Source of the DNA: Escherichia coli
Lineage (GTDB): Bacteria > Pseudomonadota > Gammaproteobacteria > Enterobacterales > Enterobacteriaceae
Reading direction: 5' to 3' (one strand)
DNA length: 64,000 bases
Assembly (NCBI RefSeq): GCF_003334405.1
Contig: NZ_QOWM01000005.1
Part shown: positions 13,898-22,816 of the stretch, piece after piece
How the letters are laid out: every line of letters starts with the position of its first letter
How positions within the stretch are numbered: position 1 is the stretch's first letter
Program-made: the position numbers and the translations under genes
The notes under the pieces: model-generated
Seen by the model: the letters and a program-made list of their open reading frames with translations, nothing else
Database searches by the model: none
What the model was told of the DNA's origin: nothing

Positions 13898-14518
13898 TTA
13901 GAGGATTTCCAGCAGTTCGACTTCAAACACCAGGGTGCTGAACGGAGGGATGGATGCGCCTGCGCCGCGCTCGCCATATGCCAGTTCCTGCGGGATAGTC
14001 AGTTCCCATTTAGAACCTACCGGCATCAGAGTCAGTGCTTCAATCCAGCCAGGGATCACGCCATTAACCGGGAATTCAGCGGGTTCACCACGAGCAACGG
14101 AGCTGTCAAACACGGTGCCGTCGATCAGTTTACCGGTGTAATGAACACGAACGCGGTCAGTACGTGCCGGAATTGCGCCTTCACCCTGGTTGATCACGCG
14201 GAATTGCAGGCCAGATTCGGTGCTGTTCACACCTTCTTTTTTGGCATTTTCTTCAAGATATTTCACACCTTCGGCAGCCATCGCCTGGAAACGCTGACGA
14301 CGAACGGCATCGGCGCGTTCGTGGATTTCACGCAGCGCGCGATGCACCACATCAACCGGAACAGCCGGATGTTTGCCTTCCAGCGCATCTGCAATACCAG
14401 CCACCAGCGCCTCCGGCAGCAGCCCTTGCAGGCCAGATTCACTCAGTTGTTGGCCTACCTGTAAACCAATGCCGTAGCTTGCTTGCGCTTCGATGGTGTC
14501 AAAAGTTGGGGTGGTCAT
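13898..14518 (-). CDS. fklB: FKBP-type peptidyl-prolyl cis-trans isomerase FklB
   Basis: Track ORF to 14569; internal ATG (14518-14516) gives [20 protein letters not shown], 206 aa as recalled. Confidence 0.92.
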
Positions 14519-14736
14519 CGTATTTCCTTTCTTAGGGTATAAAAGTAGCGGGCAGCATATCAGCCACACTTCTTTGGGTAAAACTTTGTCGCAGGAATGA
14601 TGACAAATCCCGGGGAAAAAGAAACAATAGCAATATCCCGTATGAATATAATAAAGGCGGGTTTACCACGGACATCATAGCGTTAGCTTATTCATAGGCT
14701 ATGATTGAGGAACAAGACGCGGAGCAGGAGGAAACC

Positions 14737-15375
14737 ATGCCCGGGCGCTTTGAACTAAAACCAACCCTGGAGAAAGTCTGGCACGCGCCGGACAATTTTC
14801 GCTTCATGGACCCGCTGCCGCCGATGCATCGTCGGGGGATCATTATTGCCGCCATTATATTGGTGGTCGGATTTCTGCTTCCATCTGATGATACGCCCAA
14901 CGCGCCGGTGGTGACGCGTGAAGCGCAGTTAGATATTCAGTCGCAATCACAACCGCCGACAGAAGAACAGCTGCGGGCGCAATTAGTCACACCACAAAAT
15001 GATCCTGATCAGGTGGCTCCGGTCGCTCCAGAACCTATACAGGAAGGCCAGCCAGAAGAACAGCCGCAAACTACCCAAACACAACCATTCCAGCCAGATA
15101 GCGGAATTGATAATCAATGGCGCTCTTACCGTGTCGAACCCGGTAAAACGATGGCGCAGCTGTTCCGCGACCACGGACTGCCCGCTACCGATGTCTATGC
15201 AATGGCGCAGGTAGAAGGCGCGGGTAAGCCGCTGAGTAATTTGCAAAACGGGCAAATGGTGAAAATCCGCCAGAACGCCAGCGGCGTGGTGACGGGCTTA
15301 ACCATTGATACGGGGAATAATCAACAGGTCCTGTTCACCCGCCAGCCGGATGGCAGTTTTATTCGTGCGCGGTAG
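14737..15375 (+). CDS. ytfB: OapA/LysM-domain cell-division protein YtfB
   Basis: Track ORF from 14701; ATG 14737 preceded by AGGAGG gives [20 protein letters not shown], 212 aa as recalled; Pro/Gln-rich linker. Confidence 0.9.
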
Positions 15376-16006
15376 ATGAAGGGTCAACCAAAAGCCAGCT
15401 AAGGATTGTCTCTTTGATGACCTTACGTCTGGCTTCCAGTGCCTGGGGGGAAACCATACTGATATGATAAACCAGGCCAAGCGTATGCTGGTTGATCAAA
15501 TAATATCCGCCAAGCGCAGCAATATTAATATTCACCTGCAATGGGTCGATATCTGGCTTAAAAATATTGTGTTTCTTCCCTTCATCCAATAAGGATTCCA
15601 TTAACTGCAAGTGCGCATGGTTAATTTCTAAGAGACGCTGTGATTTTGCATAATGCACACCTTTACTTTGATTTTCACTATGCACAATTTTTAAAAACCA
15701 GGGATTAGCAATATAATAATCCCATGTAAAATCAATAATTTTCTCAATGGCTTTTTGTGGCGGAAGATCTGAGAAATCAAGGGCCTTTTCTTTTTGTCGA
15801 ATATCGTTCCAGGTATATTCCAGTACTTCAATAAATAAATTTTCTTTATTACCAAAGTGATGATAAACCGTCTGTTTACTACACCCCGCAGCCTTAACAA
15901 TATTATCGACCCTGGCCCCTTCATAACCATATTCGGCAAATTCATTAACCGCGCATAACAGCAGCTTTTCCTTCAGGCTCTGTACGTTGCTGGTATCAAG
16001 ATACAT
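15359..16006 (-). CDS. TetR/AcrR-family transcriptional regulator, divergent from the accessory operon
   Basis: N-terminal HTH region ([44 protein letters not shown]) typical of TetR_N; ATG at 16006 with GGGGAAG upstream preferred over the track's TTG at 16030; gene is visibly AT-rich; 3' end overlaps ytfB convergently. Confidence 0.8.
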
Positions 16007-16128
16007 AACGCTTCCCCACGACCTCTTCAAGATAACTATCTTAACCCGATTAATTAGAAGCTCCAGTAAAAAGGATAAAAACTTGTACTTTCATCAAGTT
16101 ATCAAATGTCCTGTGATCACTATCGCAT

Positions 16129-16172
16129 ATCAACCAACCAGATGGTTGATCTTTCTTGCGGCACGTCGCAAG
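16129..16172. promoter_or_regulatory. Candidate operator palindromes in the TetR / operon divergent intergenic region
   Basis: ATCAACCA-N6-TGGTTGAT (16129-16150, 8-bp arms) and CTTGCG-N6-CGCAAG (16155-16172), 47-90 bp upstream of the first operon ATG. Confidence 0.4.
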
Positions 16173-16218
16173 CTAATTGTCACTTAGAAAACAATATTCA
16201 AAAAAAGAGAGCTATTGT

Positions 16219-17010
16219 ATGAAATCCACTCGTCCTGTTGCCGTGATTACCGGAGCCGCTCGTGGTATTGGAAAGGGCTGTGCGCTGGAGCTTGCTCGTG
16301 GCGGATTTAACCTGCTGATTAACGATCTTCCCGATGCCGACAGCGTAGAAAAACTGCATATCACACAACAAGAATGTATAGCTGAAGGCGTGGAAGTGAT
16401 TTGCTTCCCTGCCGATGTCGGCGATCTCTCCTTGCATGAAGAGATGCTCGACGCGGCGCAAAACCTGTGGGGACGTCTGGACTGCCTGCTCAACAACGCA
16501 GGCATTTCAGTGAAAAAACGCGGTGACCTCCTCGACCTCGAACCAGACAGCTTCGATCAAAACATTGCCATTAACACCCGCGCGCCGTTCTTCCTTGCTC
16601 AGGCATTCAGTAAGCGTTTACTGGCACAGCCGAAACCGGAAGCGGAACTGCCGCACCGCTCGATTATTTTCGTCAGTTCCATCAACGCCATCATGCTGGC
16701 GATGAATCGCGGCGAATACACCATTGCCAAAACCGCCGTTTCTGCCGCTGCTCGTCTATTTGCAGCTCGCCTTTGTAATGAACAAATTGGCGTTTATGAA
16801 GTGCGCCCAGGTCTCATCAAAACTGATATGACTATTCCGGCAACGGCTTATTACGACGAACTGATTGCCAAAGGTCTGGTGCCGTGGGGACGTTGGGGTT
16901 ATCCGGCTGATATTGCTTCCACTGTCCGCGCGATGGCGGAAGGTAAACTGATTTACACCTGTGGTCAGGCGGTCGCCATCGACGGCGGCTTAAGTATGCC
17001 GCGCTTCTGA
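16219..17010 (+). CDS. Short-chain dehydrogenase/reductase (SDR) family oxidoreductase
   Basis: Glycine-rich cofactor motif VAVITGAARGIGKG near the N-terminus and catalytic YTIAK (YxxxK); ATG 16219 chosen, track ORF begins upstream at 16177. Confidence 0.8.
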   Translation: MKSTRPVAVITGAARGIGKGCALELARGGFNLLINDLPDADSVEKLHITQQECIAEGVEVICFPADVGDLSLHEEMLDAAQNLWGRLDCLLNNAGISVKKRGDLLDLEPDSFDQNIAINTRAPFFLAQAFSKRLLAQPKPEAELPHRSIIFVSSINAIMLAMNRGEYTIAKTAVSAAARLFAARLCNEQIGVYEVRPGLIKTDMTIPATAYYDELIAKGLVPWGRWGYPADIASTVRAMAEGKLIYTCGQAVAIDGGLSMPRF

Positions 17011-17019
17011 GGCTGAATC

Positions 17020-17862
17020 ATGAGAGATCTGTTACAACGCCCGGATTTATTCAGTATCAATACCGCAACACTGGGCTATAAAACGCCGCTACCCGCCATT
17101 ATTGATGCCTGCGCCGCGCGTGGTATTGGCGCGATTGCTCCCTGGCGCAGGGAGTTGCAAGGTGAAGATCTCCAGCAAATCGCCCACCAGCTTGCCGCCA
17201 GTAACATGAGCGTTTCCGGTTTGTGCCGTAGCACTTACTACACCGCGCCGACACTGGCGGAACGCAAACTGGCGATTGATGATAACCGCCGGGCGCTGGA
17301 CGACGCAGCGGTGCTTAACGCCGCCTGTTATATGCAGGTGGTTGGCGGTCTGCCAACGGGCACTAAAGATCTATATGAAGCGCGAGAACAAGTGAAACAA
17401 GGGATTCGCCAGTTGCTGCCACATTCGAAAGATGTCGGCGTGCCAATTGCGCTGGAGCCACTGCACCCGATGACAGCTGCCGATCGCTCTTGCCTGTGCA
17501 CGTTACGCCAGGCGCTGGACTGGTGTGATGAACTCGATCCCGATGGTGAGTTTGGCCTCGGCGTGGCGGTGGATGTTTATCACGTCTGGTGGGATCCGGA
17601 TCTCGCCAGTCAGATCCTGCGTGCCGGAAAACGCATCCTCGCGTTTCATGTTTCCGACTGGTTAGTGCCGACCACTGATCTGGTCAATGACCGTGGTATG
17701 CCGGGAGATGGCGTCATCAATATTCCGTCAATTCGTCGGCTGGTTGAAAACGCCGGATTTAATGGCGCTATTGAACTGGAAATATTCTCGCCGTACTGGT
17801 GGCAAAAAGATATTAACAGCACGCTGGATATTAGCGTCGATCGCATCGCGCATTATTGTTAA
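17020..17862 (+). CDS. Sugar-phosphate isomerase/epimerase, xylose-isomerase-like TIM-barrel family
   Basis: 280-aa ORF with ATG 17020 10 nt after the SDR stop, GAGG upstream; IALEPLHP-type motif; family assignment from recalled signatures, not a search. Confidence 0.65.
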   Translation: MRDLLQRPDLFSINTATLGYKTPLPAIIDACAARGIGAIAPWRRELQGEDLQQIAHQLAASNMSVSGLCRSTYYTAPTLAERKLAIDDNRRALDDAAVLNAACYMQVVGGLPTGTKDLYEAREQVKQGIRQLLPHSKDVGVPIALEPLHPMTAADRSCLCTLRQALDWCDELDPDGEFGLGVAVDVYHVWWDPDLASQILRAGKRILAFHVSDWLVPTTDLVNDRGMPGDGVINIPSIRRLVENAGFNGAIELEIFSPYWWQKDINSTLDISVDRIAHYC

Positions 17863-17871
17863 GGAATGATC

Positions 17872-18648
17872 ATGAGTGACCAACCCGTTCTGTTCAGCAG
17901 AGCGGCGGCTTCCTGCCGCCTGACATTGAACCGTGAAGATAAATGTCATGCTATTAACGAAGAGATGATCGAATCTCTCGACCATTATTTAAATGAAATT
18001 GAAAACGACACCACATTACGATTAGTCGAATTAACGGCAACCGGCGATAAATTCTTTTGTGCGGGCGGCGATATTAAATCGTGGTCGGCCTATTCGCCAT
18101 TAGATATGGGCAGAAAATGGATTAAACGCGGTAATGACGTTTTTAATCGCCTGCGAAACTTACCCCAATTAACCGTTGCGAATCTCAACGGTCATACCAT
18201 CGGCGGTGGTATTGAACTGGCCTTGTGCTGCGATATTCGTATTGCCCGCCCCGGCGCGAAATTCTCTAACCCGGAAGTGATGCTCGGCATGGTGCCTGGC
18301 TGGATGGGCATTGAACGTGTGCTTAATCAGGTTGGTCCGGTGGTCGGTCGCCAGATGCTGATGCTGGGTAAACGCCTGACGGCGCAGGAAGCCCAGGCGG
18401 CGAATTTAATTGATGAAGTGGTAGAAAAAGAACAGGTGGAAAGCTGGATGGCGAACCAGTTAGCGCAGCTGGAAAAATGCGGCCCGGTGGCACTGGCGCA
18501 TATTAAGCAACTGATTCTGGCACTGGAAAATAAACATGCCGATTACCCGCACCAGCTACTGGCCGGATTAATGTCTGCCACTCAGGATTGCCAGCAGGCG
18601 ACGCGCGCCTTTGCCGAAAAAAGTAGCGTGAGCTTCCATAATCAATAA
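17872..18648 (+). CDS. Enoyl-CoA hydratase/isomerase (crotonase fold)
   Basis: Crotonase signatures FCAGGDI and GHTIGGGIELALCCDIRIA; ATG 17872 has AAGGA 6 nt upstream (track start 17866 is 2 codons earlier). Confidence 0.8.
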   Translation: MSDQPVLFSRAAASCRLTLNREDKCHAINEEMIESLDHYLNEIENDTTLRLVELTATGDKFFCAGGDIKSWSAYSPLDMGRKWIKRGNDVFNRLRNLPQLTVANLNGHTIGGGIELALCCDIRIARPGAKFSNPEVMLGMVPGWMGIERVLNQVGPVVGRQMLMLGKRLTAQEAQAANLIDEVVEKEQVESWMANQLAQLEKCGPVALAHIKQLILALENKHADYPHQLLAGLMSATQDCQQATRAFAEKSSVSFHNQ

Positions 18649-18657
18649 GGAAATTGT

Positions 18658-20199
18658 ATGCGTAAGATAACAACCGCCGAGGCACTGGCGGCGCAAATTC
18701 AGGACGGTGCGACTATTGCTATTAGCGGTAACGGCGGCGGTATGGTGGAAGCCGACCATATTCTGGCTGCTATTGAAGCGCGTTTCCTGCAAACCGGACA
18801 CCCTCGCGACCTGACGCTAATCCACTCGCTGGGTATTGGCGATCGCGACTGCAAAGGCACTAATCGTTTTGCGCACGCAGAGATGCTCAAACGCATTATT
18901 GCCGGGCACTTTACCTGGTCGCCCAAAATGCAGGCGCTGGTAAAAAATAACACGATTGAAGCCTACTGCTTTCCTGGTGGCGTGATTCAGGCACTGCTAC
19001 GGGAGATCGGCGCCGGACGTCCGGGGCTTTTTACCCACGTTGGGCTGGGATCGTTTGTTGATCCACGCAATGGCGGCGGTAAGTCGAATGAATGCACTAC
19101 CGACGAGCTGGTAGAACTGATTGAAATCGACGGTGAAACCAAACTTCGTTATCGCCCTTTCAAAGTGGATTACGCGATTTTGCGTGGCACTTATGCCGAT
19201 CCTCGAGGCAACGTCAGCCTTGAAGAAGAAGCGATTGATATGGATAGCTATTCCATGGCGCTGGCAGCACACAACAGCGGCGGCAAAGTGTTCGTACAGG
19301 TACGCGATGTGCTGGAAGCTGGCGCGATTGAACCACGCCGGGTCAAATTACCGGGCATTCTGGTTGATGGCATCGTTGAACACCGCGAACAACCACAAAC
19401 CTATCTTGGCGGTTACGACCTGACCATCAGCGGCCAACATCGCCGTCTGAGTTCTAACGACGCTATTGAACTGGTTAGTCATCCGGTACGTCGCCTGATT
19501 GCCCGTCGGGCAGCACGCGAACTGGTAGCTGGCGCTTCAACCAACTTTGGCTTTGGTATTCCCGGCGGCATTCCAGGAGTAGCGCTGCGCGAAGGCGTTC
19601 CTTACCAAAGTTTATGGCTGAGCGTCGAGCAAGGCGTACATAACGGCATGATGCTGGATGATGCGTTTTTCGGCTGCGCCCGCAACGCCGATGCCATTAT
19701 TCCATCACTCGATCAATTTGAGTTCTACAGTGGCGGAGGGATCGATATCACCTTCCTCGGCATGGGAGAGATGGATCAGTACGGTAACGTCAACGTCTCC
19801 CATCTCAATGGCAATCTGATTGGCCCCGGCGGATTTCTCGAAATTGCGCAAAATGCCCGTAAAGTGGTGTTCTGCGGCACGTTCGACGCTAAAGGCAGCA
19901 AGATCGATATAACACCAGATGGCTTGCATATCGCCCAGTCAGGTCAAATCCCTAAACTGGTTACCAAGGTGGAAAAAATCACTTTTAGCGCCGCCTACGC
20001 ACAGCAAAGTGGTCAGGAAGTGTTGTATATCACTGAACGCGCAGTATTCCAGTTAACGGCAGAAGGCGTTGAATTAATTGAAATCGCGCCGGGTGTGGAG
20101 ATTGAGCGCGACATTCTGCCGTATATGGCTTTCCGTCCAATTATCAAGCACCCACGCCTGATGGAAAGTAGCCTGTTTACGCCGATGGAGGATGCATGA
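18658..20199 (+). CDS. Family-I CoA-transferase, fused alpha/beta, YdiF-like
   Basis: 513 aa; segments GSFVDPRNGGGK, ITERAVF and IEIAPGV closely resemble recalled E. coli YdiF; AAGGA upstream of ATG 18658. Confidence 0.8.
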   Translation: MRKITTAEALAAQIQDGATIAISGNGGGMVEADHILAAIEARFLQTGHPRDLTLIHSLGIGDRDCKGTNRFAHAEMLKRIIAGHFTWSPKMQALVKNNTIEAYCFPGGVIQALLREIGAGRPGLFTHVGLGSFVDPRNGGGKSNECTTDELVELIEIDGETKLRYRPFKVDYAILRGTYADPRGNVSLEEEAIDMDSYSMALAAHNSGGKVFVQVRDVLEAGAIEPRRVKLPGILVDGIVEHREQPQTYLGGYDLTISGQHRRLSSNDAIELVSHPVRRLIARRAARELVAGASTNFGFGIPGGIPGVALREGVPYQSLWLSVEQGVHNGMMLDDAFFGCARNADAIIPSLDQFEFYSGGGIDITFLGMGEMDQYGNVNVSHLNGNLIGPGGFLEIAQNARKVVFCGTFDAKGSKIDITPDGLHIAQSGQIPKLVTKVEKITFSAAYAQQSGQEVLYITERAVFQLTAEGVELIEIAPGVEIERDILPYMAFRPIIKHPRLMESSLFTPMEDA

Positions 20200-22277
20200 G
20201 TCAGCTTGATGACACCATCCTTGATGCGCTGACGCACGTTACTTTCCCAAAGGGTTTTGCACAGGCAGAGCCCGCATGGGTTGTCACGGTAGACGGTGTT
20301 GATTACCCACTCTGGCAAACAGATGCCCTGGTAGTCGGCAGTGGTGCAGCCGGGCTGCGTGCAGCTGTGGAACTTAAACGCCGCCAGCAAAATGTGCTGA
20401 TCGCCACCGCCGGGTTATATATGGGGACGTCGGCATGTTCTGGTTCCGATAAACAGACACTGTTTACCGCCGCTACCGCGGGCAACGGCGACAACTTCAC
20501 CAAACTGGCAGAGGCACTGGCGAGCGGTGGGGCGATGGATCACGACACCGCTTATGTCGAAGCGGTAGGTTCTCTGCACACTCTTGGCGGGTTGCAATAT
20601 CTTGGTCTGGAATTACCGGAAGATCGCTATGGCGCGATTCTTCGTTATCAAACCGACCATGACGAAGCCGGGCGTGCAACCTCGTGTGGGCCGCGTACCT
20701 CAAGGTTAATGGTGAAAGTGCTGTTGGAAGAAGTACAGCGCCTCGCCATTCCAGTGTTGACCAGTGCAACAGTGATTAAACTGCTGCATCAGCGTGACGA
20801 AAACGGCGAAGACCGTGTTGCGGGGGCAATCCTCGCGACCGGTCATCGCGCCCATAACCCTTGGGGGCTGGCAATTGTGACTGCGCCCAATGTGGTACTG
20901 GCAACAGGAGGGCCTGGCGAGCTTTATCGCGACAGTGTGTACCCACACAAATGTTTTGGCTCGCTGGGGCTGGCGCTGGAGGAAGGCCTGACGCTAACCA
21001 ATCTGACCGAAAGCCAGTTTGGTATAGGCACGCCGCGTAGCACGTTTCCGTGGAATTTATCCGGCACCTATGTACAGGTGATCCCGTATATCTATTCCGT
21101 GGATGCTGAGGGTAACGAGTATAACTTCCTCGCGGATTACTATCGCACCACCCAGGAGCTGGCTTCAAACATTTTCCGTAAAGGCTATCAGTGGCCGTTC
21201 CACGCCACTCGGGTGATGGATTTTGGCTCCAGCTTGTTAGATATGGCAGTAGCGCAAGAGCAGCAATCAGGGCGTCAGGTATTTATGGATTTCAATCGCA
21301 ATCCTGAAGCGGTGCCGGGTGACCTGCCGTTCTCATTAGATCGACTGGACGACGACGTTCGCGCGTATCTGGAAAATAACGACGCTCTGGCACCATCGCC
21401 CATCGAACGGCTGCAACGAATGAATCCGCTGTCTATCTCGCTGTATAAGATGCACGGTTACGATCTCACCACACAGCCTTTGCAGTTTGCCATGAATAAT
21501 CAGCATATGAATGGCGGCATTGAAGTGGATATCTGGGGACAAACCTCCCTGCCCGGCTGTTTCGCCGTGGGGGAAGTTGCTGGCACACACGGCGTCACTC
21601 GCCCTGGTGGTGCAGCATTGAATGCCGGGCAGGTTTTTGCTGTTCGTCTGGCACGTTTTATTGGTTGCACGCAAAAGCGGAATATTGATGGAGATATAGC
21701 ACAGCTGGTAGCTCCTACACTGGCTTCTATAAGAGAGATCATTACTCAGGCGCACGATAACGGGACCGGGATGCCGTTGTCGGTTGTGAGAGAAAAAATT
21801 CAGGCACGAATGTCTGACCATGCGGGATTTATTTGCCATGCCGATAAAGTCCGACGCGCCACTCGCGATGCCCTGCTATTGAGCGAATTTGTCCAACGGC
21901 ATGGATTGGCTATCAAACATGTGGGTGAAGTTGCCGAGCTGTTTATGTGGCGGCATATGGCACTGACTTCTGCCGCCGTATTAACGCAATTAACGCATTA
22001 TATTGACGCAGGTGGTGGTAGTCGGGGAGCACGTATTATTCTCGACAGGGATGGAAATTCTATTCCGCAAACACGAAATGGTTTTTGTGATGCCTGGCGC
22101 TTTCGTTCAGAGCGTACTGAGGATAAAAAAGATAAACTACTTATTCATTATTGCAACGGTATCTTTCACGTCAGAGAAACACCTGTTCGTGAGTTTCCTA
22201 TTATCCGAGGTATTTGGTTTGAAAAAAACTGGCCTGGTTTTCTTAATGGGACAATTTACCAGCCACAGGATGAATGA
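20196..22277 (+). CDS. FAD-binding flavoprotein of the fumarate-reductase/succinate-dehydrogenase/L-aspartate-oxidase superfamily
   Basis: 693 aa; N-terminal dinucleotide fold VVGSGAAGLRAA, mid-region LATGGPGE and C-terminal HGVTRPGGAALNAGQVFAVRLA typical of FAD_binding_2 proteins; ATG 20196 overlaps the upstream stop (ATGA). Confidence 0.78.
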   Translation: MSQLDDTILDALTHVTFPKGFAQAEPAWVVTVDGVDYPLWQTDALVVGSGAAGLRAAVELKRRQQNVLIATAGLYMGTSACSGSDKQTLFTAATAGNGDNFTKLAEALASGGAMDHDTAYVEAVGSLHTLGGLQYLGLELPEDRYGAILRYQTDHDEAGRATSCGPRTSRLMVKVLLEEVQRLAIPVLTSATVIKLLHQRDENGEDRVAGAILATGHRAHNPWGLAIVTAPNVVLATGGPGELYRDSVYPHKCFGSLGLALEEGLTLTNLTESQFGIGTPRSTFPWNLSGTYVQVIPYIYSVDAEGNEYNFLADYYRTTQELASNIFRKGYQWPFHATRVMDFGSSLLDMAVAQEQQSGRQVFMDFNRNPEAVPGDLPFSLDRLDDDVRAYLENNDALAPSPIERLQRMNPLSISLYKMHGYDLTTQPLQFAMNNQHMNGGIEVDIWGQTSLPGCFAVGEVAGTHGVTRPGGAALNAGQVFAVRLARFIGCTQKRNIDGDIAQLVAPTLASIREIITQAHDNGTGMPLSVVREKIQARMSDHAGFICHADKVRRATRDALLLSEFVQRHGLAIKHVGEVAELFMWRHMALTSAAVLTQLTHYIDAGGGSRGARIILDRDGNSIPQTRNGFCDAWRFRSERTEDKKDKLLIHYCNGIFHVRETPVREFPIIRGIWFEKNWPGFLNGTIYQPQDE

Positions 22278-22297
22278 TATTGCAAAGGTTAATCACT

Positions 22298-22774
22298 ATG
22301 CGAAATATAATTAGATCTATTAATGCTCTGCTTGCAGCATTGAACATTACCATTTTGGCGATCATCGTGGCATGTGTGACGTGGCAGGTGGCTGCACGAT
22401 TTATATTTACTAGTCCCAGTATTTTTACAGATGAACTCAGCCGTTTGCTCTTTATTTGTCTTGGACTTTTTGGTGGGGCATACACCGCAGGGCAAAACCG
22501 GCATCTGGCGATTGACCTGCTACCTATGATGCTGAAAGGAAAAGCCCGACGTCATTTATTTTTGTGTATTCAGATTATCGTTATTATCTTCGCAACCATC
22601 ATTATGGTATATGGTGGTGGGCTATTAACGATGGATACATTCGATTCAGGTCAGACCTCGCCCGCTTTAGGCTGGCAAATGGGATATATCTATATGAGCA
22701 TCCCGATTAGTGGTGTACTTATTATTATATACACCATAGATATGGTTTTAACCGAACTTAAACAACCACTCTAA
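22298..22774 (+). CDS. TRAP transporter small permease (DctQ-like)
   Basis: ~160-aa hydrophobic protein with about four predicted TM segments immediately upstream of the large permease; ATG 22298 (AAGG 9 nt upstream) preferred, alternative ATG 22274 overlaps the upstream stop. Confidence 0.75.
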   Translation: MRNIIRSINALLAALNITILAIIVACVTWQVAARFIFTSPSIFTDELSRLLFICLGLFGGAYTAGQNRHLAIDLLPMMLKGKARRHLFLCIQIIVIIFATIIMVYGGGLLTMDTFDSGQTSPALGWQMGYIYMSIPISGVLIIIYTIDMVLTELKQPL

Positions 22775-22816
22775 AGATAACAAACAACAACCAACCATAG
22801 TAGGAATGGAGAAATT

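Follow-up and report, generated by a model that had tools for sequence, protein, structure and literature searches.

A putatively TetR-regulated operon between ytfB and rplI of Escherichia coli, predicted to catabolise a sugar-acid-like carboxylate

Gene content and predicted regulation of the ytfB–rplI island

We analysed a 64,000-nt stretch of Escherichia coli DNA (hereafter the window), which covers the chromosome around ytfB-rplI-ula and carries a 9.8-kb island between ytfB (14701–15375) and rplI. The island contains ytfA (15359–16006, minus strand), a TetR-family regulator gene according to the RefSeq annotation of an identical locus, and, divergent from it, eight plus-strand genes. Specifically, these encode a classical short-chain dehydrogenase/reductase (SDR) of PRK12745 type (16219–17010), a xylose-isomerase-like TIM barrel of the SMc04130 family and predicted metalloenzyme (17020–17862), a crotonase-fold enoyl-CoA hydratase/isomerase (17872–18648, with an alternative ATG at 17866), a fused family-I coenzyme A (CoA) transferase that is a YdiF/Pct/FadX-like paralogue (18658–20199), a 693-aa stand-alone flavoprotein with an FrdA/SdhA/NadB fold (20196–22277), and the small permease DctQ (22298–22774), large permease DctM (22817–24118) and substrate-binding protein DctP (24171–25142, with a signal peptide) of a tripartite ATP-independent periplasmic (TRAP) transporter. 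A preliminary description, made from the sequence alone, had recognised the first four of these genes (16219–20199) as one operon; their coordinates are exact and their family calls hold, but the unit was drawn too short, missing the flavoprotein and DctQMP genes downstream and the divergent ytfA.

The layout supports the prediction that all genes from the SDR gene through dctP form one eight-gene operon, in agreement with the single operon proposed for the first four. The intergenic gaps are 9, 9, 9, −4, 20, 42 and 52 nt, the stop of the CoA-transferase gene overlapping the start of the flavoprotein gene by 4 nt (ATGA, 20196–20199), and a Shine-Dalgarno-like sequence precedes every one of the eight genes. 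In addition, gene order is kept across genera, and since the same order is found at the same site in Klebsiella oxytoca, Salmonella enterica and E. albertii, and in a Rhodocyclaceae metagenome-assembled genome (MAG), the grouping is not a matter of chance. Promoter-like and terminator-like matches inside the operon deviate from shuffled sequence by about one standard deviation or less. A hairpin with a 12-bp stem, located by pattern search between the convergent dctP and rplI genes (25206–25232), is likely a two-way terminator that closes the operon.

A few further features of the island stand beside this layout. The dctM–dctP gap holds a GC-rich hairpin, TGGCGGCACCTGCCGCCA (24130–24147, plus strand; a pattern match only), with a T-rich stretch behind it, which could adjust how much binding protein is made relative to the membrane subunits. 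Public databases hold 973–1078-aa E. coli proteins that join CoA_trans to FAD_binding_2, probably frameshift or deletion fusions over the 20196–20199 overlap. Two open reading frames (ORFs) that RefSeq does not annotate, one of 167 aa antisense to the flavoprotein gene (21336–21839, minus strand) and one of 188 aa antisense to rplI (25164–25730, plus strand), are most likely spurious. Searches with Rfam families and with PADLOC defence-system models gave no match.

The spacer between ytfA and the SDR gene is 212 nt long and contains a perfect palindrome, ATCAACCA-N6-TGGTTGAT (16129–16150), about 70 nt upstream of the SDR start. The regulator gene adjoins its candidate target, and the palindrome lies in the promoter region that the two share, as in TetR-regulated divergent operons. 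The 20-nt core of the palindrome, CAACCAACYAGATGGTTGAT, is identical in six of six enteric loci, from E. coli (both alleles, see below), E. albertii, Klebsiella and Salmonella, and the spacer outside this core has diverged among the same loci. We infer that the palindrome is the YtfA operator. Directly upstream of it is TGTGATCACTATCGCA (16112–16127), a candidate CRP site and the sole match to TGTGA-N6-TCRCA in the window, in which 0.28 matches are expected by chance; its half-sites are preserved in Klebsiella, Salmonella and the second E. coli allele. A search of the promoter region for −35 and −10 hexamers gave no convincing placement. YtfA itself has weak TetR-family matches only among NCBIfam models, its orthologues carry Pfam TetR_N and TetR_C_29, and the GC content of its gene is 39.5%. 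The gene has been listed as a TetR regulator found in only part of E. coli (PMC6790063).

Predicted enzymes and transporter

The SDR scores 417 bits against NCBIfam PRK12745 (cut-off 250) and contains the classical SDR motif set (TGAARGIG at 11, NNAG at 92, SSI at 153 and YTIAK at 167). Its RefSeq product name, FabG 3-ketoacyl-ACP reductase, was rejected, the TIGR01830 score being 122 bits against a cut-off of 298 and the surroundings being a predicted catabolic operon with no fab cluster. The TIM barrel matches Pfam PF01261 (xylose isomerase-like; E 1.8e-37), has the (beta/alpha)8 fold and conserves the Glu/Asp/His/Glu metal site. Narrower assignments of this protein failed: it scores 28 bits against 300 for IolO and 26 against 353 for hydroxypyruvate isomerase, it falls below the curated subfamily cut-off for 3-dehydroshikimate dehydratase, and it is only 21% identical to UlaE, which is encoded in the same window. 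Its nearest characterised structural neighbours are the inosose isomerase IolI, ketose 3-epimerases, YcjR, IolE and two 3-dehydroshikimate dehydratases, and action adjacent to a ketone is common to them. The namesake of its family, SMc04130 of Sinorhizobium meliloti (PDB 3QC0 / 3JU2), is a structural-genomics 'sugar isomerase' without an assigned function.

The crotonase reaches up to 151 bits against crotonase models but stays under every equivalog cut-off, and we therefore give it no specific function. It has the two glutamates of hydratase-type enzymes (E115, in GGGIE at 111, and E135, in PEVMLG at 134), and its orthologues carry Pfam ECH_1. The CoA-transferase is 39% identical to K-12 YdiF over the full length with the same fused alpha/beta architecture, matches both the pcaI/scoA-type and the pcaJ/scoB-type halves, and has a glutamate, E324 (in VEQG), that aligns with the ETG glutamate of YdiF, features by which it is classed as a family-I CoA-transferase. 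It is a paralogue, not an orthologue, of YdiF, given its 39% identity, its other locus and its other neighbours; the FadX model gives 383 bits against a cut-off of 750. Rather, it belongs to a subfamily of its own, whose members are 52–61% identical and travel with the SMc04130-type TIM barrel.

The flavoprotein matches Pfam FAD_binding_2 (E 8e-28; GSGAAG at 48), and its AlphaFold2 model (pLDDT 93.6) aligns in Foldseek with FrdA and SdhA at a TM-score of 0.65–0.8 and 15–19% identity. The model thus places it in the FrdA/SdhA/NadB superfamily with the full four-domain fold. In the FAD domain, the His/Arg pair is retained as H437 and R469; the HPT His of the capping domain, the RGEG Arg and the covalent-flavin His, motifs defined by general knowledge of FrdA and NadB, were not found by eye in the sequence or in phmmer alignments. 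Fumarate reductase, succinate dehydrogenase and L-aspartate oxidase proper were rejected: no model of these enzymes scores above 126 bits (cut-off 718), the motifs just named were not found, and the operon contains no gene for an Fe-S or membrane partner. The protein shares FAD-binding motifs and fold with those enzymes but differs in being a stand-alone flavoprotein that is always encoded beside an SDR. Its family, of which we collected 422 representatives at E<=1e-30, is conserved end to end. We lean towards a reductive role, because the flavin would be non-covalent and the protein is present in a strict anaerobe. Fold searches returned nothing more specific than the superfamily; every protein clearly belongs to its superfamily, and none of them to a characterised subfamily.

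All three components of a DctPQM transporter are present. DctM scores 458 bits against TIGR00786 (cut-off 268), DctP 251 bits against NF037995 (cut-off 50), and DctQ rests on annotation and a weak YiaM match. R166 of DctP (in VRVQ), the predicted carboxylate-binding Arg, is conserved with solved binders, the closest of which are 4OVR, 4X8R, 4N8Y, 4N15/4N17, 4LN5 and 4N91, the first four about 45% identical; we take 4OVR to be a hexuronate binder. The structures 4X8R and 4N8Y are glucuronate- and galacturonate-bound, 4N15 (Bamb_6123) served as a homology-model template in a comparison with glucuronate-binding proteins, and the literature names both 4N15 and 4N91 as binders of hexuronates (PMC11668362, PMC7660916). 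DctP keeps Arg146, Arg166 and Asn206 of the hexuronate binders, whereas its N31 and Q32 replace a T/V-H pair of the solved binders, and its E72 and D233 correspond to D and E in them. Three of these residues, N31, Q32 and D233, match the residue list of STM3169 through a constant numbering offset, with no alignment.

In Klebsiella, Salmonella and Nissle-type E. coli, the TRAP transporter is replaced by a major facilitator superfamily (MFS) protein of TIGR00893, the D-galactonate transporter subfamily (315 bits), a family that also includes the hexuronate carrier ExuT. A related cluster of Brenneria encodes a PcaK-like aromatic-acid symporter instead. Because two unrelated carriers of sugar-acid families, TRAP and MFS, serve the operon, together with a PcaK-like symporter in Brenneria, we argue for a substrate that is a hydroxylated, sugar-acid-like monocarboxylate. 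The hydroxy-acid-type substrate suggested earlier agrees with this, as the TRAP and MFS carriers both point to a hydroxylated or sugar-type acid. The hexuronate TRAP systems, such as Salmonella STM3169-3171 and Bamb_6123, resemble the one described here in DctP family, in the roughly 45% identity of their solved binders and in the Arg/Arg/Asn residues. They differ in context, being uxu/uxa-linked or without enzyme genes (PMC7660916), whereas the present TRAP genes are predicted to be co-transcribed with five enzymes of other families.

Arrangements across genomes

We compared 84 loci, consisting of 79 genome loci with TIM-barrel homologues and the loci found earlier; neighbouring genes were identified by running BLAST on ORFs taken from stop to stop. 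The largest group (52/84) combines the TIM barrel with a Gfo/Idh/MocA dehydrogenase and DUF993, without a CoA enzyme. Thirteen loci have the TIM barrel with a CoA-transferase, an acyl-CoA dehydrogenase (ACAD), an SDR and DUF993, with or without Gfo; five, from enterics and Rhodocyclaceae, have it with a CoA-transferase, crotonase, flavoprotein and SDR; and two, from Brenneria and Escherichia sp. ESNIH1, have it with flavoprotein and SDR, with or without Gfo, and without CoA enzymes. The remaining 12 carry other or partial arrangements. Across the 84 loci, the flavoprotein never occurs with DUF993 or with ACAD, and the crotonase never occurs with ACAD.

The ACAD-type clusters, found in Pseudomonas and Burkholderiaceae, have an SDR of the same subfamily (368 bits) and an ACAD that is butyryl/acryloyl-CoA-dehydrogenase-like (367 bits to AcrC), which takes the place that the flavoprotein has in enterics. 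The Rhodocyclaceae copy has an extra MaoC hydratase. In Brenneria the order is TetR, divergent from SDR-TIM-flavoprotein-MFS, and in ESNIH1 it is SDR-Gfo-TIM-MFS-flavoprotein. Furthermore, distant flavoprotein homologues (36–46% identity) led to other contigs. Among them, Succinatimonas-type gut contigs carry TetR, divergent from SDR-flavoprotein-TIM-DctP-DctQ-DctM, without CoA-transferase or crotonase; others carry TetR divergent from SDR-flavoprotein, SDR-flavoprotein-OYE (old yellow enzyme), or TIM-OYE-flavoprotein-SDR-Gfo. The SDR-flavoprotein pair is the tightest link in these comparisons, and transporter, SDR, flavoprotein and TIM barrel form a self-sufficient unit in some organisms. Because SDR, flavoprotein and TIM barrel recur without CoA-transferase and crotonase (Succinatimonas-type contigs, Brenneria and ESNIH1), the two CoA enzymes look like a module added in enterics and one betaproteobacterium, not like the entry step.

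Some observations concern the relatives themselves. The unit of a Gfo/Idh/MocA dehydrogenase (381 aa), DUF993 (4DNH) and an SMc04130-type TIM barrel (3QC0) is very widespread in beta- and alpha-proteobacteria, its structures being structural-genomics orphans; in rhizobia and Comamonadaceae the SMc04130-type genes stand beside these two partners, not beside flavoprotein or CoA enzymes. This unit, noted about 2.5 kb upstream of the TIM homologues, usually has a TetR_C_29 regulator, and a thiamine diphosphate enzyme lies near some of the Comamonadaceae clusters. About 7–9 kb upstream of the TIM barrel, ACAD-type clusters of Pseudomonas, Caballeronia and Paraburkholderia repeatedly contain a GMC (choline-dehydrogenase-like) oxidoreductase, an aldehyde dehydrogenase and a ribose/allose-type ABC binding protein, which could turn a neutral sugar or polyol into the acid that enters the pathway. 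Clustering of neighbour ORFs over the 79 loci was swamped by high-GC shadow ORFs, and only the four neighbour types just given could be named. On a low-GC metagenomic contig, consecutive genes (5382–11537) encode a TIM barrel, an OYE, a homologue of the flavoprotein (36% identical), an SDR and a Gfo/Idh/MocA dehydrogenase; large proteins without a Pfam match flank them, and a Shikimate_dh_N gene (14548–15294) is found nearby on the other strand.

Of 5426 complete E. coli genomes, 3153 (58%) carry the enzyme block, essentially always on the chromosome and in this position between ytfB and rplI, and the genes are intact in about 3100. Identities of the block range from 100% down to about 94%, a pattern that fits vertical inheritance. 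In K-12 (4426628–4428095), yjfZ (DUF2686) and a 402-bp ytfA pseudogene replace the whole operon; as only this pseudogene remains there, 'ytfA' is in K-12 the name of a repressor remnant. Klebsiella oxytoca and Salmonella carry the regulator and five enzymes between ytfB and rplI with a 425-aa MFS protein instead of TRAP, and two alleles, TRAP type and MFS type, likewise exist within E. coli. The TRAP type occurs in 1446 E. coli genomes at >=80% coverage; the MFS type occurs in the Nissle derivative SYNB1934, and also in strain 23AR1101, where it is IS1-disrupted.

The TRAP genes have a GC content of 41–45%, against 50–55% for the enzyme genes. Because the TRAP proteins of the Rhodocyclaceae MAG are 65–85% identical to those of the window and its enzymes only 40–61%, the transporter module appears to have been exchanged horizontally, and this suggests that the cassette moved between distant lineages. 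A plasmid or mobile origin was rejected: full-length 'plasmid' matches occur only on E. coli records of 0.37–4.8 Mb that are predicted to be non-mobilizable and are presumably chromosomal pieces. In SYNB1934, the MFS-type allele (10643–13826 of the compared stretch) is followed by a frameshifted hipA-like toxin gene and a helix-turn-helix gene. In 23AR1101 (7541–9592 of the compared stretch), IS1 leaves the SDR gene and a truncated TIM-barrel gene, and the MFS gene is a pseudogene. Several otherwise identical E. coli loci (window 14000–25142) have insertions of IS1, IS3 and IS5, TRAP genes included, which points to ongoing decay in some lineages.

A proposed pathway and its alternatives

Gene content, operon architecture, conservation, family memberships and cross-genome modularity are directly observed. 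The reading that we prefer, to which we give a probability of roughly one half, is that ytfA and the divergent SDR-TIM-crotonase-CoA-transferase-flavoprotein-dctQMP genes make up a substrate-inducible catabolic operon, with import of a sugar-acid-like compound, a carbohydrate-type core, a CoA module and thiolysis by housekeeping enzymes. The substrate would be a hydroxylated monocarboxylic acid of sugar-acid type, possibly hexuronate-like or a ring-shaped polyhydroxy acid, taken up by the TRAP transporter or, in other enterics and B2 E. coli, by the galactonate-family MFS carrier. The acid or a derivative would release YtfA from its palindrome, and cAMP-CRP would probably activate transcription. 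Inside the cell, the SDR would turn a secondary alcohol into a ketone or the reverse; that ketone would be enolised by the TIM barrel, a metal-dependent enzyme, leading to isomerisation, epimerisation or beta-elimination of water; and the non-covalent FrdA-like flavoprotein would add or remove a C=C bond beside the carboxylate or a carbonyl. In enterics, the YdiF-like transferase would then convert the resulting acid to a thioester with acetyl-CoA or succinyl-CoA as donor, the crotonase would hydrate or dehydrate the thioester, and housekeeping thiolase and beta-oxidation enzymes would finish the route. The operon is probably an inducible acid-catabolic operon built from known folds and encoding chemistry that has not been described.

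A bolder version of this proposal, for us a long shot, is that the SDR, the SMc04130-type TIM barrel and the stand-alone FrdA-like flavoprotein constitute an unrecognised module, widespread from gut anaerobes to enterics. This module would strip or rearrange hydroxyls on a carboxylic acid of ring or sugar type, using ketone formation, C=C reduction and either enolisation or dehydration. E. coli, Klebsiella and Salmonella would have linked it to chemistry on CoA thioesters.

Several points weigh against the preferred reading. The 84 loci are a biased sample, drawn from the best 80 of >591 TIM-barrel homologues; Succinatimonas and Brenneria could carry CoA enzymes elsewhere in the genome; the CRP-like site is a consensus match only; and a DctP identity of 45% leaves the ligand unfixed. 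Moreover, an SDR stands beside the CoA-transferase in 19 of the 20 CoA-transferase loci, which, like the 4-nt overlap of the CoA-transferase and flavoprotein genes, fits a single CoA-level pathway equally well. Such a pathway, which resembles the preliminary description with the flavoprotein added, and in which the CoA-transferase thioesterifies, the FrdA-like flavoprotein desaturates, the crotonase hydrates and the SDR oxidises, with the 3-ketoacyl-CoA passing to the TIM barrel or to a housekeeping thiolase, is the main rival, unlikely but deserving serious consideration. Also in its favour, an ACAD takes the place of the flavoprotein in Pseudomonas and Burkholderiaceae, the two being mutually exclusive, and the Rhodocyclaceae copy has its MaoC hydratase. 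However, clusters of SDR, flavoprotein, TIM barrel and transporter exist without CoA-transferase or crotonase, the TIM barrel is mostly found with Gfo/Idh/MocA and DUF993 in loci that have no CoA enzyme, and we know of no FrdA/NadB-family enzyme that uses CoA thioesters. In addition, there is no thiolase gene in the operon or its flanks, and a complete beta-oxidation cycle is therefore not encoded there. The mixture of CoA-type and carbohydrate-type chemistry reported in the preliminary description is real, whereas its backbone of CoA transfer, hydration and oxidation is not supported in the form given there, in view of the missing thiolase and the occurrence of SDR, flavoprotein and TIM barrel without CoA enzymes.

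Two further alternatives concern the substrate. A hexuronate outside the Uxa/Uxu/Kdu routes (L-iduronate, mannuronate, guluronate or a keto-deoxy-uronate from other gut bacteria) would be handled by the SDR as reductase and the TIM barrel as isomerase or epimerase, CoA activation making the carboxylate-adjacent proton removable. We regard this as quite unlikely: the solved DctP relatives 4X8R, 4N8Y, 4N15 and 4N91 bind hexuronates (PMC7660916, PMC11668362), the alternative MFS carrier is of the D-galactonate subfamily, and the TIM barrel has a weak sequence affinity to the 5-keto-L-gluconate epimerase IolO, but the DctP pocket differs at N31, Q32, E72 and D233, Brenneria has an aromatic-acid-type symporter, and the flavoprotein is left unexplained. 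Still more doubtful is a hydroaromatic or cyclitol-carboxylate pathway for a quinate-, shikimate- or dihydroshikimate-like acid, either aromatising or acting as a reductive electron sink through ketone/alcohol exchange, dehydration and C=C reduction. Inosose isomerase and dehydratase and the two 3-dehydroshikimate dehydratases are among the nearest characterised relatives of the TIM barrel, partner dehydrogenases elsewhere are inositol-dehydrogenase-like, the Brenneria transporter is PcaK-like, a Shikimate_dh_N gene lies beside one distant cluster, and the functional grammar is common to the K-12 ydiN-ydiB-aroD-ydiF-ydiO cluster; FrdA-type enzymes, moreover, act on alpha,beta-unsaturated carboxylates, of which shikimate is one. 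All of this is circumstantial, however, as is the support for the alicyclic substrate that the preliminary description raised speculatively, the TRAP and MFS families are of sugar-acid type and are no known shikimate carriers, the operon has no dehydroquinase, AroE-like gene or aromatic-ring pathway, and a literature search on dihydroshikimate yielded no gene-level work. Finally, the IS1, IS3 and IS5 insertions in some strains and the absence of the island from K-12 might be taken as signs of unrelated neighbours in separate units, a decaying remnant or a non-metabolic (defence or biosynthetic) island. This is very improbable in view of the tight spacing and 4-nt overlap, the order kept in Escherichia, Klebsiella, Salmonella and one betaproteobacterium, the intact genes of about 3100 genomes, the uptake-type transporter and the zero PADLOC and Rfam matches.

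Full-text literature searches found no description of the gene cluster and no published pathway with the same gene set, consistent with the earlier statement that the combination matches no E. coli pathway that could be named. Acid pathways initiated by CoA transfer include carnitine metabolism by caiABCD of E. coli, the acrylate pathway of Clostridium propionicum and the cyclohexanecarboxylate (bad/ali) pathway of Rhodopseudomonas; CaiB is a type-III CoA-transferase, whereas the enzyme described here is of family I. The deoxyribonate CoA route of Klebsiella michiganensis shows that CoA esters of sugar acids exist, but it was rejected as the same system since it includes a CoA synthetase, a thiolase and a glycerate kinase that are absent here (PMC6365646). 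What these four systems share with the predicted chemistry of the operon is thioester activation followed by crotonase, flavoenzyme and dehydrogenase steps; unlike the operon, they have neither a xylose-isomerase-like TIM barrel nor an FrdA-like flavoprotein. Compared with the enzymes of myo-inositol catabolism (IolG, IolE and IolI), the TIM barrel is 15% identical and scores 26–28 bits against iol-type NCBIfam models with cut-offs of at least 300. The operon differs from that system further in importing a predicted acid and in having no iolB, iolC, iolD or iolJ. The K-12 cluster ydiN-ydiB-aroD-ydiF-ydiO (1772512–1778347) encodes a transporter, a quinate/shikimate dehydrogenase, a dehydroquinase, a CoA-transferase and an acyl-CoA dehydrogenase, and thus follows the same functional grammar, but apart from the CoA-transferase its parts are not homologous to those of the operon.

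The operon is common in enterobacteria of clinical and commercial relevance: 58% of complete E. coli genomes have it, the probiotic Nissle 1917 lineage and ST131 among them, and it occurs in strains of the Klebsiella oxytoca group and in many Salmonella. Its absence from K-12 probably accounts for the lack of work on it. Orphan metabolic clusters of this sort are numerous; here the candidate repressor/operator pair, the binding protein and the five soluble enzymes are readily tested. It makes a case for discovering a nutrient or electron acceptor of enterobacteria of the gut and urinary tract, and may allow a function to be assigned to three orphan families for which crystal structures or large numbers of members are already available, namely the SMc04130 TIM barrels, DUF993 and the flavoprotein family of about 420 clusters. 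That gut bacteria convert dietary quinate and shikimate to precursors of cyclohexanecarboxylate or benzoate is an old observation. If the substrate proved to be hydroaromatic, the operon would provide a genetic basis for the conversion of those dietary acids by gut bacteria and would hint at what the parallel ydiN-ydiB-aroD-ydiF-ydiO cluster, so far unexplained, does in K-12.

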